Source: a bacterium
GTDB taxonomy: Bacteria; UBA8248
Direction: 5' to 3'
NCBI GenBank assembly: GCA_965207065.1
Contig: OZ242260.1
Coordinates: 2,816,001 to 2,880,000 of the forward strand
DNA: 64,000 bases
Under the pieces are notes generated by a model. It was given only the letters and a program-made list of their open reading frames with translations, was not told the DNA's origin and searched no databases. This document shows positions 36,675 through 42,812 of the stretch, piece by piece. Numbering within the stretch: the stretch's first letter is position 1; the number at the start of each line of letters is the position of its first letter. The position numbers were made by a program, and so were the translations under genes.

Positions 36675-37520
36675 ATGGCGACAGACGAACTGACGATTCA
36701 TCATGAAGACTTGCGTGGCCGCATTCTCTCAACGGATTCGATGACCTATTTTGACGAAAGGGTTGAAGAACGGGACGTTCTCATTGGAGGCTCTTACGCC
36801 GCACGCATGACGATGGCGTGGGCAATGCGCCTGGGTGCGAGGGCAATCGTTGCCCATGCGGCAGGAGTAGGAAAAGATGACGCGGGTATAAGCGGTCTCC
36901 GGTTGGCCCAGGAATATCATGTGCCTGCATTGGCATGTGAGACAATGTCCGCAAGACTCGCCGTTGGAGTATCCGTTTATGAAGGCGAAGTCGGCCATGC
37001 GAATCAAGTGGCCCAAAGTCTCGGTGTTGAAATCGGTCAATCCATTGCTGAAGCTTCGAAAATTTTGCTCGATGCCGATGTGGGCCGGGAAGTGATTGTG
37101 GAGGAAAGCCTGGATGATAGAATTTATGAGCTAGAGCATTTGCCTGATGGTAACATACGCGCTTCATGGGGAATTCCCGTCCTGCGTTCTATCCAGGAAC
37201 CAAGGCCCCAAGATGTTTTTATCCAAGCCTCGCATTGCGGACTTACTCTCGTACCGCATGTCATGAAGCTTAATTTAAAGGGTGTTATTGCCAATGATGC
37301 AGGACGGGGGAAAGATGACTCCGGCATCGCATCTTTCCCCTACCTGGCGCGGGAGGGGATTGCGGTGGCGGCGGTCGGCGCCATGAGTGCGCGAATTGGT
37401 GATGTGATGAGCACCTGGCAGGAAGGCATTATTTCATGCATGAACGAAGTGGCGGAGAAGCGTGGGGTGCGAGAAGGCATGATGACGCGAGAGGCGGCTA
37501 TCGCAATGCTCAATGCGTAG
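36675..37520 (+). CDS. Hypothetical protein with internally duplicated (D/A)AG.GKDD.GI domain
   Basis: HAAGVGKDDAGI...MSARL and NDAGRGKDDSGI...MSARI halves. Confidence 0.75.
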   Translation: MATDELTIHHEDLRGRILSTDSMTYFDERVEERDVLIGGSYAARMTMAWAMRLGARAIVAHAAGVGKDDAGISGLRLAQEYHVPALACETMSARLAVGVSVYEGEVGHANQVAQSLGVEIGQSIAEASKILLDADVGREVIVEESLDDRIYELEHLPDGNIRASWGIPVLRSIQEPRPQDVFIQASHCGLTLVPHVMKLNLKGVIANDAGRGKDDSGIASFPYLAREGIAVAAVGAMSARIGDVMSTWQEGIISCMNEVAEKRGVREGMMTREAAIAMLNA

Positions 37521-37538
37521 GATTTACCAGAAATTATC

Positions 37539-37614
37539 TGGTGGAGGTGAGGGGATTCGAACCCCTGACCTCGTGGGTGCGATCCACGCGCTCTCCCATC
37601 TGAGCTACACCCCC
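37539..37614 (-). tRNA. tRNA-Ala (CGC)
   Basis: 76 nt, G3:U70 pair, anticodon arm CGTGG-atCGCac-CCACG, GGTTCGAATCC, CCA. Confidence 0.96.
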
Positions 37615-37628
37615 ACAAAAGGAACTTG

Positions 37629-37657
37629 AAGGTAGGCGAAGGAGCTACGGGTGTCAA
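37629..37657 (-). promoter_or_regulatory. sigma70 promoter of tRNA-Ala
   Basis: TTGACA-N17-TACCTT on the minus strand. Confidence 0.65.
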
Positions 37658-37667
37658 GTGAAATAGG

Positions 37668-37960
37668 GAGAGCCGATGAAGAACTCCCCCTAGGAGACTT
37701 CACCGGCTCTCGACCTGCCACAGAGTCCGCCCGTTTCCCCCGCAGCAGGGAGTTGCTTTTGACTAAAGTGGGAGCCAAGGACTCAACCCCTGAGGTATAT
37801 TATCCTTGGCTCCCGATCCTGCTGCAGAGTCCGCCCGTTTCCCCCGCAGCAAGAAAATTCACTGAAATTCCATTTTGGTGAGAGTCGGGGGACAACCCTC
37901 CAAGGATTTTCCCCCGACTCTCGTCCCGTCGCAGAGTCCGCCCGTTTCCCCCACGACGGG
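37668..37960 (-). ncRNA. Tandem array of three two-hairpin structured RNA units, unknown family
   Basis: Invariant 21-nt core at 37721, 37825 and 37932; covarying stems with G-U pairs on the minus strand. Confidence 0.65.
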
Positions 37961-37969
37961 TAAGCTATA

Positions 37970-40900
37970 TCAAGAACATCCACTCGTCGCGCCACAAGTC
38001 ATACATTTCAGGCACGTCCCGTTTCGCACTAAGGTGAACAAACCACAATCGCTGCAAGCTTCCCCCTCATACCCTTTCGCGCGGGCTTCTTCGATGCGTG
38101 AATCAATTGCGGAGCTTGCTTCCGTTATGGGTGTCATCGAAGTTTGGGTGGATTCTGTCTCATAATTCAGACTTATCCGGTCGCTGCGCGGTGCGCTTGC
38201 ATCCGGTCCCGGGAATATGGTTTGAATCTCTTCTTCTTCCTCGGTATCGAATTCCGGAATCTCTTCCTGGGGGCGCCCGATGGTGTCGCTCCTCAAGTCC
38301 TCCGACACGACTTGCGCCAGGTCGTGGCGACCGAGATATGAAACCGCCAGTTCACGGAAGATGTAATCGATGATGGATGTGCTCATCTTGATGTGCGGGT
38401 TGCCCGAGACCATACCCCCCGGCTCGAATCGTGTGAATACGAAGGCATCCACGAATTCATCCAATGGGACGCCGTGTTGGAGCCCCAGCGAAATTGCGAT
38501 GGCGAAACAATTCATGAGGCTTCTGAAGGCAGCGCCTTCTTTGTGCATATCTATGAAAATTTCGCCGATGGAGCCGTCCTCGTACTCACCGGTTCTAAGA
38601 TATACCTTGTGACCGCCAATGACGGCTTTTTGTGTGTATCCACCGCGGCGGGTAGGCAACTTGCGTCTTCTGGACTGGTAAATGATCCGGCGCACAATCT
38701 GCTGGGCTACATGCACGGGGGCACTTTGGGTAGCTGGTTCTTCTTCGCCGATATCACTGAAGAGTTCTGCTTCGCTTTGTGCGGAAAGTGGTTGGCTTAG
38801 TTTCGAGCCATCGCGGTAAATCGCTATGGCTTTGGTCATCCGCTGCCACGATTCGTTGTAGATGTCTAAAATATCTTGAATCGTTGATTCCGCGGGCATG
38901 TTGATGGTTTTGCTGATGGCGCCAGATATGAAAGGCTGCGCCGCCGCCATCATTCGAACATGGGCCATGGGGCTGATGAAACGCTTGCCTTCTCGTCCGC
39001 ATTTGCTCGCGCAATCAAAAACGGCTAGATGCTCTTCTTTTAGGTGGGGCGCCCCCTCAAGCGTCATTTTCCCGCAAACGAAATCATTCGCTTCGCTGAT
39101 TTGTTCTGGAGTGAAACCAATGGCTTCGAGCAGATTCAGGTTCCAGTCGGCTATTTGCGCTTCGCTGAGCCCTAATTGCTCAATGCAGAAGTCATCACCG
39201 AGGGAATGTTTGTTGAAGGCGAACTGGATTTCAAACGCCCCTTCGAGAGCAGCTTCCACTTTTTCCAGAGCCTTGCTCGTAAACCCTTTCTCGTGCAAAG
39301 ACTCTGGATTGATATGAGGAGCATTCGTGAGGGTCCCCCGCCCTCGGCAGTAGGCGACGATTTCGCGGATCTCTTCATCGTCATAGCCTAGATGCCGCAA
39401 GGCAGCGGGAACGGATTGGTTGATGATCTTGAAATAACCGCCTCCGGCCAGTTTTTTGAATTTCACCAAAGCAAAATCCGGCTCGATTCCCGTTGTGTCA
39501 CAATCCATCACCAAACCAATTGTGCCTGTCGGCGCGATGACAGTGGCTTGTGCGTTCCGGTAGCCGTTTCGATAGCCGATGGCCAAAGCATCATCCCACG
39601 CCTCACGCGCCGCTTGGAGAAGATAATGGGGGCAGATTTCCGCAGCGATTCCTGCTGGTGCCTTCGAGAGCATTTCGTATTCTGCCTCCGGCACAGAATA
39701 AGCTGCGCGGCGGTGGTTTCTCAGAACCCGCAACATGTGCTCTTGGTTGTCCTGATACCTTGAGAAAGCGCCCATTTCCCCTGCCATCTCGGCGCTGGTG
39801 GCATACGAGCAGCCGGTCATGATGGAGGTGAGAGCGCCGCACCATGCTTCCGCTTCAAGTGAGTCGTAAGGGATGCCAAGAACCATTAACAAGGTGCCCA
39901 GATTGGCGTACCCAAGTCCTAAAGTTCGATACTCGAATGAGCGTTTGGCTATTTCCGGACTGGGGAATTGCGCCATCAGTACTGAAATTTCGAGGACGAC
40001 TGTCCATAGGCGAATAACATGACGATAGTCTTCTATCTGAAAGTGGTTTTTTTCAGTATCCAAGAATTTTATGAGATTCATCGACGCTAGATTGCATGCG
40101 GTATCATCCAAGAACATGTATTCTGAGCAAGGATTAGAGCCGTTGATGCGACCATCGGCGGTGCACGTGTGCCAGTCGTTGATGGTTGTGTCAAATTGAA
40201 GGCCAGGGTCTGCGCAACACCACGCTGCATATCCAATCTGATTCCAAAGTTCTTTCGAACTGACGGAGTCCGCGATTTCGCCGTCAGTGCGCCGTATCAG
40301 GTTCCAATCCGAGTTTTTCTCGGTAGCTTCCATAAAATCATCTGAAACGCGGATGGAATTGTTCGAGTTTTGACCGGAAACCGAGATGTAGGCCTCGCCT
40401 TCCCAATTTGTATCGAGCTCTTCGAACTCGATTTCGGTGATGCCTTGACGTGCAAGTTGGAGAGTCCGATGGATATAATTATCCGGAACGCCGGCGAGTC
40501 TTGCGGCCCGAATTGCTTTGGTGAGTGATGGGTTTTTATCCGGCTGGTACAAGTTGCCATTCAAGCTCAGGTTCTTTCCTTCCAGGCAAGCCCCGAGAAT
40601 GGCGTTCATGTGCCGGTTGCACATCTTGCTGCCCGAAACCAGGGCGGCCACTTTCTGTTCTTCGTGCACCTTCCAGTTGATGAATTCCTCGATGTCGGGG
40701 TGGTCGATGTCGAGCGTGACCATTTTCGCCGCGCGCCGAGTGGTGCCGCCCGACTTGATCGCGCCCGCGGCGCGATCCCCAATCTTGAGGAAACTCATGA
40801 GGCCGGAGCTTCTTCCACCTCCTGAGAGAGATTCCCCCTCCGCTCTCAAATTCGAGAAATTCGTGCCGGTGCCCGAGCCGTATTTGAAAATGCGCGCCTC

Positions 40901-41566
40901 GCGCGTCCATAAATTCATGATCCCGCCCTCGTTGACGAGATCATCTTTCACCGATTGGATGAAGCACGCATGCGGTTGAGGACGCTCATAGGCGTTGGTG
41001 GAGCGGAGTATTTCCCCGCTTTCGGGATCGCAATAAAAATGTCCCTGGGCGGGGCGCGTGATGCCGTAGGCCCAGTGCAGGCCCGTATTGAACCACTGTG
41101 GCGAGTTGGGGGCCGCCATCTGGCTCGCTAGTATGTATAAAAGCTCCTCATAGAACGCTTTGGCGTCTTTTTCCGCGTGAAAATAACCGTGTTTCCAGCC
41201 CCAATAGGTCCAGCATCCCGCCAGGCGATGGAAAACGTCCCGGGCGTCGCGCTCGCTTCCGAATCGCTCATCCTCGGGCAGGGACTCAAGTTTTTCCGTG
41301 TCCGGCTCCGAGCGCTGCAGCCATTCGGGCACTCCCTCTTCGGAAACTTTGTTTAAATGTGTGGGGACGCCGGCTTTTCGGAAGTATTTTTGCGCTAGAA
41401 TGTCGACGGCCACCTGAGACCAGCTCTCAGGCGCCATGATGTCCTTCGCTTCGAAGACGACCGAGCCGTCCGGGTTGGTGATGCGCGAGGTGCGCGGCGT
41501 GAAACCGACCTCGCCGTACGCGTCATCTCCGGCCCGGGTGAATCGCCTCGTAAACTCCACGCCCAT
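37970..41566 (-). CDS. nrdJ: Vitamin B12-dependent (class II) ribonucleotide reductase
   Basis: [38 protein letters not shown]-terminal Cys cluster CSDC...CMTCG...GCS. Confidence 0.96.
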
Positions 41567-41597
41567 TCTCCTCCGCTAGGAACGCCCCGCTATGCCG

Positions 41598-41731
41598 GGG
41601 TCATATTTAGTATGGCGAAATCAAGCGGCAACACTAAATGTAGTATGCTTTGCCCCCGTCTGTCAATACCCTGAAAACGGATATACACAAAATATATGCG
41701 ATTACCCACACCTTATCCCCAAATATTGTGT
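41598..41731. promoter_or_regulatory. NrdR boxes (about four) and nrdJ promoter
   Basis: ACACTAAATGTAGTAT (41631), ACACAATATTTGGGGA (rc of 41716-41731), weaker boxes at 41598 and 41685; TTGACA on the minus strand at 41661-41666. Confidence 0.75.
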
Positions 41732-41950
41732 TTTCCTGTGGAAAACCGGCGCAAACAGGAAAACAAGGGCTGAAAACCGCTTCGCCGCCCCACGCAGCCT
41801 CGATTTCCGGAGCCTCGGCGCGCCTTGAATCGGGGGCGCAGGAGCGCGTGAACTCAAAGAGCGTGGCCGCCGGCCGGCGCGCTTTTGCCGCGCAGAACAA
41901 GCACCGGAAACGCCCGCAAACATGCTCCGGATGCGCCCGGAAGAGCGTCT

Positions 41951-41992
41951 GAAATTTATCGAAAAACCCCGTGAATTTATCTGTATTTATCG
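41951..41992 (-). repeat. Right copy of the long-range inverted repeat (partner 24411-24452)
   Basis: GAAATTTATCGAAAAACCCCGTGAATTTATCT, 32 bp identical. Confidence 0.85.
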
Positions 41993-42198
41993 TATTTTTC
42001 GGAATTGTTCAGGGGTGATTGTCCTCGACTTCGCCGCCCCGGCCGCGTCCCGATGACTCCCTCTCTCACGCACTGACGACATGTCTGGAGAGTCATCGAA
42101 CGGGCCGATCTCCCGGCGGCGAGGCGCGGTTGCAAGAGCGAAGACCGCGCGTCGAGCAGGAGGATGGTACACCTTTCCGGAACGCGCACCTGCGGGGA

Positions 42199-42366
42199 AA
42201 TGCGCGCTTCCCGGCGGCGGACCTCATCGGCGCGCGCGCCCTCATCACCCAGGCGCTCGATGAGCGGGCCGCAAGTTTCCGCGAACGCTTCGGCATCCGC
42301 GCGTTCTCGGAGCGCGAGTCGCTCATGCTGCTGTTGAGGATATCGGAGTCGAGAGACGTGTTTTAG
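42199..42366 (+). pseudogene. C-terminal remnant of a GNAT acetyltransferase toxin
   Basis: AADLIGARALITQALDERAASFRERFG...LMLLLRI resembles the GNAT toxin tail; N-terminus missing. Confidence 0.55.
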
Positions 42367-42446
42367 GGCAGGGCGTGCACGGATTCGAGGATAGGCGGCT
42401 TGGCGCAAGGTTGGCTGAGCGATGGATTATCGCAGCTACGCACCGC

Positions 42447-42812
42447 TCAGTCCTGCTCCAGGAGGACGGCCAGCTTCTCCAGCGCTTCGCCCACCACGCG
42501 CGGCGGAGCCTGCGACGCGAGGCGCGCCTTTCGCGCCCGCCAGTCGAGGCTCTTCACCTGATCGGCGAGCACCACGCCCGTAACGGGGCCATCGGCGGGG
42601 AGCGCCACCTCGAAGGGATAGCCCTTGGCTCTCGAAGTGACGGGACAGAGGAGCGCCAGACTGCTTTTCTCGTTATAGCTTCGCGGGCTGACGACCAGCG
42701 CGGGGCGGCGGCCCGCCTGCTCATGCCCCGCCTGGGGGGTGAAGGAGAGCCAGACGACGTCGCCCCTGCCCGGAACGTAGTCCGCGTCCGAAACCACCGG
42801 TCTCGCTACCAC
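42447..42812 (-). CDS. mazF: MazF/PemK endoribonuclease toxin
   Basis: YVPGRGDVVWL.F.PQAGHEQAGRRPALVVSP, CPVTS, DQVKSLDW. Confidence 0.95.
   Translation of the reverse strand: MVARPVVSDADYVPGRGDVVWLSFTPQAGHEQAGRRPALVVSPRSYNEKSSLALLCPVTSRAKGYPFEVALPADGPVTGVVLADQVKSLDWRARKARLASQAPPRVVGEALEKLAVLLEQD

Follow-up and report, generated by a model that had tools for sequence, protein, structure and literature searches.

A tandem array of two-hairpin RNA modules behind nrdJ, very probably the terminator-capped 3′ untranslated region of a ribonucleotide reductase message in one bacterial family

Ribonucleotide reductase (RNR) is the bottleneck of DNA synthesis, and its control in bacteria is known at the promoter, through NrdR, and in 5′ leaders, through B12 riboswitches; control of RNR in the 5′ leader has reportedly been described for the nrdAB 5′ untranslated region (5′UTR) as well. 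At the other end of the message, CpxQ and SroC are bacterial 3′UTR-derived small RNAs (sRNAs) or sponges that share the terminator of their mRNA, and the 3′UTR of the transferrin-receptor mRNA carries an array of iron-responsive elements (IREs), IRE-like hairpins that bind aconitase being found in bacteria as well. This report concerns an array of structured RNA units directly downstream of nrdJ, which encodes a class II RNR, in a bacterium of the GTDB lineage UBA8248. The window that was analysed is a stretch of 64,000 nucleotides (nt; assembly GCA_965207065.1, contig OZ242260.1, positions 2,816,001 to 2,880,000), and bare coordinates below are positions within it. The array is a two-hairpin structured RNA under selection on the nrdJ-sense strand, and very probably it is a genuine, selected element that makes up a terminator-capped nrdJ 3′UTR in one bacterial family.

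The array was noticed in an earlier interpretation made from the letters of the window alone (the sequence-only reading), which claimed three minus-strand copies of a 21-nt sequence (the 21-mer). The copies are exactly as claimed, with plus-strand starts at 37721, 37825 and 37932 and periods of 104 and 107, and 100 dinucleotide-preserving shuffles yielded no match. The minimum free energy (MFE) of the 321-nt region is −166.1 kcal/mol, compared with −117.5 ± 5.8 kcal/mol in shuffles (z = −8.3; 0 of 100 as low), and the six stems quoted at that time are all in the sequence and are all helices of the MFE structure. An alignment was built from 89 non-redundant units of 37 loci, with exact duplicates collapsed and with two chance CGGGCGGAC matches (L006, L007) and one truncated unit (L030:1598-1703) left out. 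RNAalifold folded it into two hairpins, with double compensatory changes at 21 of the 27 pairs. Standard pairs occupy 96.5% of 2347 cells in the 87 distinct rows; shuffling of partners lowered the paired cells to 85.5%, none of 500 shuffles matching any of five observed measures, and sliding the partners by 1–3 columns left 43–60% of the cells paired. A covariance model (CM) of the units was a check that the sequence-only reading had proposed, and its matches in related genomes are described below.

The strand assignment follows from the same alignment. It contains 421 G-U cells and 27 A-C cells, and the share of paired cells, 96.5% on the nrdJ-sense strand, is 79.7% on the opposite strand; because G-U cells far outnumber A-C cells, the functional RNA is the nrdJ-sense strand, and the minus-strand structure that had been proposed from G-U versus A-C positions in the window holds family-wide. 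In a mutual-information scan of the alignment the top pairs were those of the nested helices, with no Watson-Crick pseudoknot or loop-loop signal. A correlation between columns 43 and 99 was considered as a tertiary contact and rejected, being not Watson-Crick and tracking unit type. The features of the locus, in the order in which the minus strand is read, are as follows.

37970..41566, minus strand: nrdJ, class II (B12-dependent) ribonucleotide reductase, 1198 amino acids (aa); open reading frame (ORF) and Pfam.
37880..37960, minus strand: unit 1, with hairpin 1 at 37960-37925, the 21-mer at 37952-37932 and hairpin 2 at 37922-37880; sequence, fold and CM.
37854..37879, minus strand: spacer 1, A/U-rich and single-stranded, ACCAAAAUGGAAUUUCAGUGAAUUUU; candidate RNase E/G processing site, from motif enrichment.
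37770..37853, minus strand: unit 2, with hairpin 1 at 37853-37818, the 21-mer at 37845-37825 and hairpin 2 at 37814-37770; sequence, fold and CM.
37750..37769, minus strand: spacer 2, A/U-rich; sequence and motif enrichment.
37668..37749, minus strand: unit 3, with hairpin 1 at 37749-37714, the 21-mer at 37741-37721 and hairpin 2 at 37711-37668; sequence, fold and CM.
37658..37667, minus strand: U-rich tail CCUAUUUCAC behind hairpin 2 of unit 3; the nrdJ transcript probably ends here at an intrinsic terminator.
37657-37652 and 37634-37629, minus strand: putative tRNA-Ala promoter, outside the RNA motif; TTGACA, a 17-nt spacer and TACCTT.
37539..37614, minus strand: tRNA-Ala(CGC); ARAGORN.

The array measures 293 nt from the nrdJ 3′ side to 37668. 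The nrdJ stop codon occupies 37972-37970 and hairpin 1 of unit 1 begins 9 nt downstream of it, in accord with the start near the stop that had been read from the window. CM matches cover unit 1 at 37871-37963 (99.6 bits), unit 2 at 37761-37856 (77.4 bits) and unit 3 at 37659-37752 (88.4 bits). Each module consists of two hairpins and is ~85–95 nt long. Hairpin 1 contains eight freely covarying pairs followed by a nearly invariant G-U/G-C/G-U/G-C box; the 8-bp closing stem described in the sequence-only reading is retained, and its view of the extent of the hairpin had to be changed, since the 21-mer also pairs with itself at its two ends, GGGG with CUCU (G-U, G-C, G-U, G-C), and a loop of 12 nt is left. 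The first three bases of this loop are variable, the next is A in 84 of 87 rows, and CGGGCGGA follows in all 87. Its last nine bases read A-CGGGCGG-A, with an invariant GGA at the 3′ edge, and the invariant stretch grows to 14 nt when the loop is extended into the weak G-U box. After a linker of 3–4 nt comes hairpin 2, which has 11–13 covarying pairs, a variable middle and a conserved base in which GAGRGCC is paired with GGCYCUC. At its tip a CCU-NGG-RGG mini-hairpin is kept in sequence (84–86 of 87 rows at most positions), the GGRGG being partly paired.

Behind each internal unit comes an A-rich spacer, which opens with ACCAAAA and closes with GAAUU(U/C) immediately ahead of the next hairpin 1. 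A T-run of the CCCTTTTTC type occurs after the last unit of each array only, in the window and in relatives alike, and because of it the last unit looks like the nrdJ terminator. With a G+C-rich stem in front of a U-run, this unit is likely an intrinsic (Rho-independent) terminator, as judged from sequence features. A terminator-like site was called on the minus strand at 37692-37664, with the tail TTTCACTTGA and in an offset register; hairpin 2 of unit 3 would also serve as the terminator stem.

In all family loci examined, the array lies directly 3′ of nrdJ. The reductase in the window is recognised by its Pfam matches (Ribonuc_red_lgC, 418 bits; Ribonuc_red_2_N, 147.7 bits; TSCPD, 41.2 bits), and it is the only RNR found, the class I small subunit (PF00268) and NrdD (PF13597) giving no match in the genome; because NrdJ is the sole RNR found, the array rides on an essential message. 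In a metagenome sample, true units were present in 12 of 21 loci (11 contigs), the remaining nine loci being rejected as chance matches, and the nrdJ C-terminus was directly upstream on the same strand in 11 of 11 contigs with true units. The tRNA gene was present in ten of these contigs and the eleventh was cut at the array. In 25 of 30 loci tRNA-Ala(CGC) follows in the same orientation, ~50–120 nt away, and it is likewise downstream in four of four g9 loci. The g8 genomes, which are A/T-rich and 2.0–2.2 Mb in size, have one unit immediately behind the nrdJ stop codon, with a convergent gene next to it, and their loci (L053-L056) contain no tRNA gene in ~1.5 kb downstream of nrdJ (0 of 4). 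The constant neighbour is therefore nrdJ and not the tRNA, because g8 keeps the unit after nrdJ without a downstream tRNA-Ala. In g2 the last unit is separated from the tRNA-Ala promoter by a conserved ORF of 85 aa (MQKKKVWLTPEV...; L006:1154-1411, minus strand; also L004 and L007); this ORF reached no Pfam family at cut-off, the best being DUF365 with 19.5 bits against 25.9. One nrdJ locus is unusual in the gene itself: at G037:C12:9102-10097 the match to the nrdJ C-terminus is split (query residues 1-249 and 254-309) despite an open frame of 1219 aa, and a small insertion in the acidic linker of NrdJ may be responsible.

The proposal that the array ends just before the promoter of the tRNA agrees with the position of the TTGACA/TACCTT pair, which follows the U-rich tail; a TTGACA/TAnnTT hexamer pair ahead of tRNA-Ala is kept in relatives, and a strict promoter scan of the window did not call it. 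Promoter scanning also called no sigma-70-type promoter within the nrdJ 3′ end. Upstream of nrdJ, the leader (41640-41760, minus strand) has a TTGACA-type promoter plus two A/T-rich palindrome-like stretches, which are candidate NrdR boxes by their resemblance to the consensus. Rfam gave no riboswitch in 37000-42500, the nrdJ leader included, and this leader has no complement to the loop of hairpin 1.

The motif has a single locus per genome and a narrow distribution. In the 4.48-Mb single-contig genome a pattern search with up to three mismatches placed the 21-mer only at the three array sites, and the next best CM match after the three units scored 21.6 bits and lay on the opposite strand of the array itself. 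A pattern scan of 42 genomes of the same family detected the core in 38. One of these matches, in G032 and with three mismatches, was rejected as a true unit and is attributed to chance, because neither unit structure nor a CM match is present there. The CM search of the phylum identified units in 37 of 51 genomes, each with one array of 1–4 units: 36 of 41 genomes of family f1 besides the organism’s own, and 0 of 1, 0 of 1 and 0 of 7 genomes in the other three families. Five f1 genomes lack the motif. In G005, G028 and G032 the nrdJ query that was used detected no nrdJ; in G010 and G040 the match to nrdJ runs up to the edge of a contig, and the assembly lacks the 3′ flank there.

Searches outside the phylum set agree with this restriction. 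When all species genomes were scanned, with the exact core and also with the degenerate one, multi-copy loci turned up only in metagenome-assembled genomes (MAGs) labelled Nitrospinota, Nitrospinaceae or Candidatus Tectomicrobia, or unlabelled; nine single degenerate-core matches in other phyla were rejected as chance, as they had the core only and 14–20 bits. Many of the runs holding the motif are labelled as sponge metagenomes, and viral contigs contained no motif match. Among the best 80 loci by similarity to the NrdJ C-terminus across all species genomes, the motif was present in three, all of this family, and in 0 of the 77 other-lineage loci with a close NrdJ C-terminus. Motif-free loci include MAGs labelled Nitrospina sp., Nitrospinaceae and Nitrospinales, in which NrdJ is only 53–57% identical.

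Comparison of the units with one another indicates how the copies have been maintained. Of the 83 units in multi-unit arrays, 81 have their closest counterpart in another genome, and 62 are more similar to a unit of another genus than to any in their own array. It follows that neither recent duplication nor conversion has homogenised the arrays. All copies have the same loop, and the loop, the G-U box and the tip are fixed in every paralogous copy across at least seven genera; each copy is old and individually kept by selection. Some arrays depart from the usual layout. In L010, L017 and L018 (g1, period 162), hairpin 2 of the middle unit is retained and its hairpin 1 is gone, together with the invariant loop, which makes this unit a natural deletion variant. 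In G001 and G002 (g2), ~285–400 nt separate nrdJ from the first full unit, and a weak 22-bit match in this gap suggests a decayed unit.

Parts of the stretch are represented in six RNA-library runs belonging to three studies; in the four runs that were examined they are assembled contigs. Run X15 has a 432-nt contig covering 37561-37970, with the three units, 54 nt of the tRNA and one difference, and X16 has a 429-nt contig covering 37603-38031, with the array, 62 nt of nrdJ and two differences. X17 and X19, which may be the same data set deposited under two entries, share an identical contig of 304 nt (37915-38218) with the end of nrdJ and 46 nt of unit 1. The region 37300-37515 is without cover in all four runs and gives evidence neither way. 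What these contigs establish is the presence of the array in RNA libraries and its bridging to the nrdJ 3′ end, and no more.

The array was also compared with known RNA families. Rfam 15, searched over 37000-42500 and over the array alone at E values up to 10, returned generic hairpin matches only, far below gathering scores; the best on the array, mir-7558 on the wrong strand, had 28.1 bits where the gathering score is 80, and the others had at most 18.5 bits. A run at gathering scores on L001 found the tRNA only. The sequence-only reading, which had proposed a covarying minus-strand RNA of an undescribed kind, is borne out in this respect, as no family reached its gathering score. The array is equally not a dispersed repeat of the REP, BIME or MITE type, because each genome has one locus; this candidate, against which that reading had suggested counting the 21-mer genome-wide (the count is three), was rejected with one locus in each of 37 positive genomes and none in viral contigs. 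Another part of the earlier interpretation, a protein sponge suggested by the GGA motifs, is not supported in the form of a CsrA sponge: CsrA (PF02599) has 0 matches in this single-contig, 96%-complete genome while control genomes were positive, and a CsrB/RsmZ-type sponge is rejected for a genome without a CsrA match.

Other candidate partners and enzymes were sought in the same genome. Hfq and ProQ likewise gave no match there, control genomes again being positive, and a gene for RNase E/G is present (353.6 bits). R-N-W-U-U is the RNase E consensus known from work in Salmonella. Of 51 internal units, 29 have it in the 12 nt that precede hairpin 1, as do 17 of 32 first units, whereas 684 of 5000 random 13-mers drawn from these loci (14%) contain it; this enrichment is suggestive only, because the spacers are simply A/U-rich. 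The Cys-rich C-terminal tail of NrdJ was rejected as a partner, as sister family f4 has the tail without the motif.

Antisense targets were sought as exact or near-exact complements in one genome, with no accessibility model. Genome-wide, complements of the loop are about as numerous as expected by chance (9-mer, 111 versus 76 expected; 10-mer, 30 versus 22), and an extra 12-mer complement at C1:67927 was rejected as a target, since it sits in a repetitive coding region. The nrdJ mRNA has no special seed match, 71 of 200 shuffled seeds doing equally well. A recurrent near-perfect site in g1 was rejected because the sense strand of a TusA-like gene carries the same sequence as the loop, so that it is not complementary as RNA. 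The site itself, at G000:C1:1038800-1039100, is a small TusA/SirA-like ORF (...DLTGELCPMNW...) whose sense strand equals the loop 14-mer with one mismatch; it recurs in many g1 genomes and is judged coincidental, conserved as codons. Eight contiguous bases of the loop are complementary to the organism’s own 16S rRNA at gene position 1408, in the decoding-centre strand (duplex of −17.5 kcal/mol). This match is not significant, because 498 of 5000 composition-matched shuffled 9-mers have at least eight complementary bases in the rRNAs. One rRNA operon was found by 16S motif search (L143, G000:C1:1913600-1921600), in the order 16S, two tRNAs, 23S and 5S.

The explanation that we favour, with a probability of about 0.4, is that this terminator-capped nrdJ 3′UTR is built of docking modules for a trans-acting factor, probably a protein, and that it acts in cis or as a decoy. 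The 293-nt stretch would be the 3′ untranslated tail of the nrdJ message, composed of three modules, with the last hairpin 2 and the U-run ending the transcript, and each module would dock a trans-acting factor, most likely a protein. In one version, the tail would control the decay or 3′ processing of the sole RNR mRNA, like the IRE array of the transferrin receptor; in another, RNase E/G would cut in the spacers and release stable decoy RNAs, the dose of which would track nrdJ transcription. Conservation falls in separate patches, both single- and double-stranded, namely the loop, the G-U box, the hairpin 2 base and the hairpin 2 tip. A docking or recognition surface fits better than a bare seed or an exonuclease barrier because these separate, sequence-specific patches stand beside covarying stems and are repeated in up to four maintained copies. 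Somewhat more tentatively, the factor and the RNA may form a dedicated and as yet undescribed bacterial RNA-protein regulatory pair in a lineage where Hfq, ProQ and CsrA were not found. Several points weigh against docking modules. Protein binding is inferred, and CsrA, the best-known binder of GGA in loops, gave no match in the genome; a contact between NrdJ and its own RNA in autoregulation is without specific support, because f4 has the tail and no motif. The invariant single-stranded 9–14 nt also resemble an sRNA seed, and the target searches were crude. The RNA-library contigs cannot show ends, strand, level or processing, and DNA carry-over is possible in them.

The main rival would have RNase E/G cut the tail in its A/U-rich spacers, giving two-hairpin, trans-acting sRNAs of ~100 nt, with the loop as an antisense seed by which chosen mRNAs follow DNA-precursor synthesis. 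Location in a 3′UTR with a shared mRNA terminator, an invariant single-stranded 9–14-mer between covarying stems, the maintenance of multiple copies by selection, and the enrichment of the cleavage motif in the spacers together with an RNase E/G gene are all what such sRNAs would have. It is nevertheless unlikely, given that complements of the loop are about as frequent as chance predicts, that the one near-perfect site seen repeatedly in the family belongs to the sense strand of the TusA-like gene, that the match in nrdJ mRNA is ordinary, that searches of the genome detected neither Hfq nor ProQ, and that a seed leaves the conserved tip and base of hairpin 2 unexplained. Sequence conservation also speaks against a purely cis-acting 3′ end, in which the stable hairpins would be a terminator and exonuclease barrier for nrdJ mRNA with no specific partner: a barrier needs no invariant 12-nt loop, G-U box or tip, and these are fixed while the stems vary. 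The very stable fold, the T-run behind the last unit and the sufficiency of one unit in the small g8 genomes speak for this possibility, which we nonetheless regard as quite improbable. Tandem aptamers in the 3′UTR, tuning nrdJ mRNA stability in response to deoxynucleoside triphosphates (dNTPs), adenosylcobalamin (AdoCbl) or another metabolite, are a still poorer prospect. In its tandem layout and its link to a metabolic gene the array recalls cooperative riboswitches, and the conserved loops could shape a pocket between hairpins 1 and 2, but these are two independent hairpins with neither a multi-helix junction nor covariation of a pseudoknot or loop-loop kind, they sit 3′ of the stop codon without an expression platform, and even at E values up to 10 Rfam matched no riboswitch.

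Two further proposals concern the translation machinery and the neighbouring gene. Were the loop to pair with the decoding-centre strand of 16S rRNA, and the Shine-Dalgarno (SD)-like GGRGG of the tip with the anti-SD, the tail would bind the 30S subunit, and an invariant target would account for an invariant loop. The eight complementary bases in the organism’s own 16S rRNA are the attraction of this idea; with a tenth of shuffled 9-mers matching rRNAs equally and with the invariant bases 3′ of the match unpaired with rRNA, it appears highly improbable. Hardly credible at all is a role for the array as leader of tRNA-Ala(CGC) or in its processing. The proximity of this tRNA gene on the same strand in most loci and contigs, and the one RNA-library contig that extends from the array 54 nt into the tRNA, would suit such a role; the g8 unit persists after nrdJ with no tRNA downstream, the g2 ORF intervenes between array and tRNA, and the T-run and the conserved hexamer pair divide the two.

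A conserved, multi-copy, structured 3′ tail would add a new layer to RNR control, and the partner could reveal a new RNA-binding factor, because no Hfq, ProQ or CsrA was detected in this lineage. If the 16S proposal were true, 30S subunits would be captured or parked by the tail, or by unit RNAs released from it, and translation capacity would in this way be coupled to DNA-precursor synthesis. With ~90 distinct units, covariation at 21 of 27 pairs and paralogous copies that are separately selected, the motif is among the better covariation-supported orphan RNAs; its reach does not go beyond a single family of uncultured bacteria from marine and sponge sources (labels Nitrospinota, Nitrospinaceae and Candidatus Tectomicrobia). 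The abstracts of the literature on nrdJ RNA motifs, UTRs and sRNAs and on Nitrospina small RNAs do not describe the element. The main texts of two motif-discovery studies mention no nrd or ribonucleotide-reductase motif and no Nitrospin* term, and their supplementary motif lists could hold one (PMC5737381; PMC11109978); the term Nitrospin* is likewise absent from the available portions of further motif-discovery papers.

Comparison with described systems places the array between several kinds. It shares with the orphan motifs a covariation-backed fold, narrow taxa and a gene association (Weinberg et al., 2017; Narunsky et al., 2024), and unlike most of these, which are 5′ leaders, it is a tandem 3′ tail. 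Like CsrB/RsmZ sponges it is a multi-hairpin RNA with G-rich loops in which GGA occurs and a copy number that differs among species, yet its ~90-nt units consist of two different hairpins, lie within an mRNA tail and have no Rfam match, and no CsrA gene was found. The repeats of type III toxin-antitoxin systems (ToxI-like) are also tandem direct repeats of structured RNA that end at a terminator; the units here are about three times longer, occupy a fixed chromosomal locus after an essential gene and have no viral or mobile copies, and no gene for a toxin endoribonuclease lies downstream, where tRNA-Ala, a convergent gene (g8) or the 85-aa ORF (g2) is found instead. With the transferrin-receptor IRE array the likeness is an analogy of mechanism only, in that hairpins with invariant loops on variable stems are repeated in the 3′UTR of a metabolically critical mRNA; the array has no IRE likeness in sequence or structure, and it is bacterial and terminator-capped. 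CpxQ/SroC-type RNAs resemble it in the position between stop codon and intrinsic terminator, in a conserved single-stranded stretch amid covarying stems, and in candidate A/U-rich RNase E sites upstream. From these it differs in comprising 1–4 tandem paralogous modules, in a conservation that reaches beyond a seed, and in that Hfq/ProQ and targets were not found. We class the array among the 3′UTR-embedded regulatory RNAs of bacteria, a known kind, in which it forms a new RNA family.

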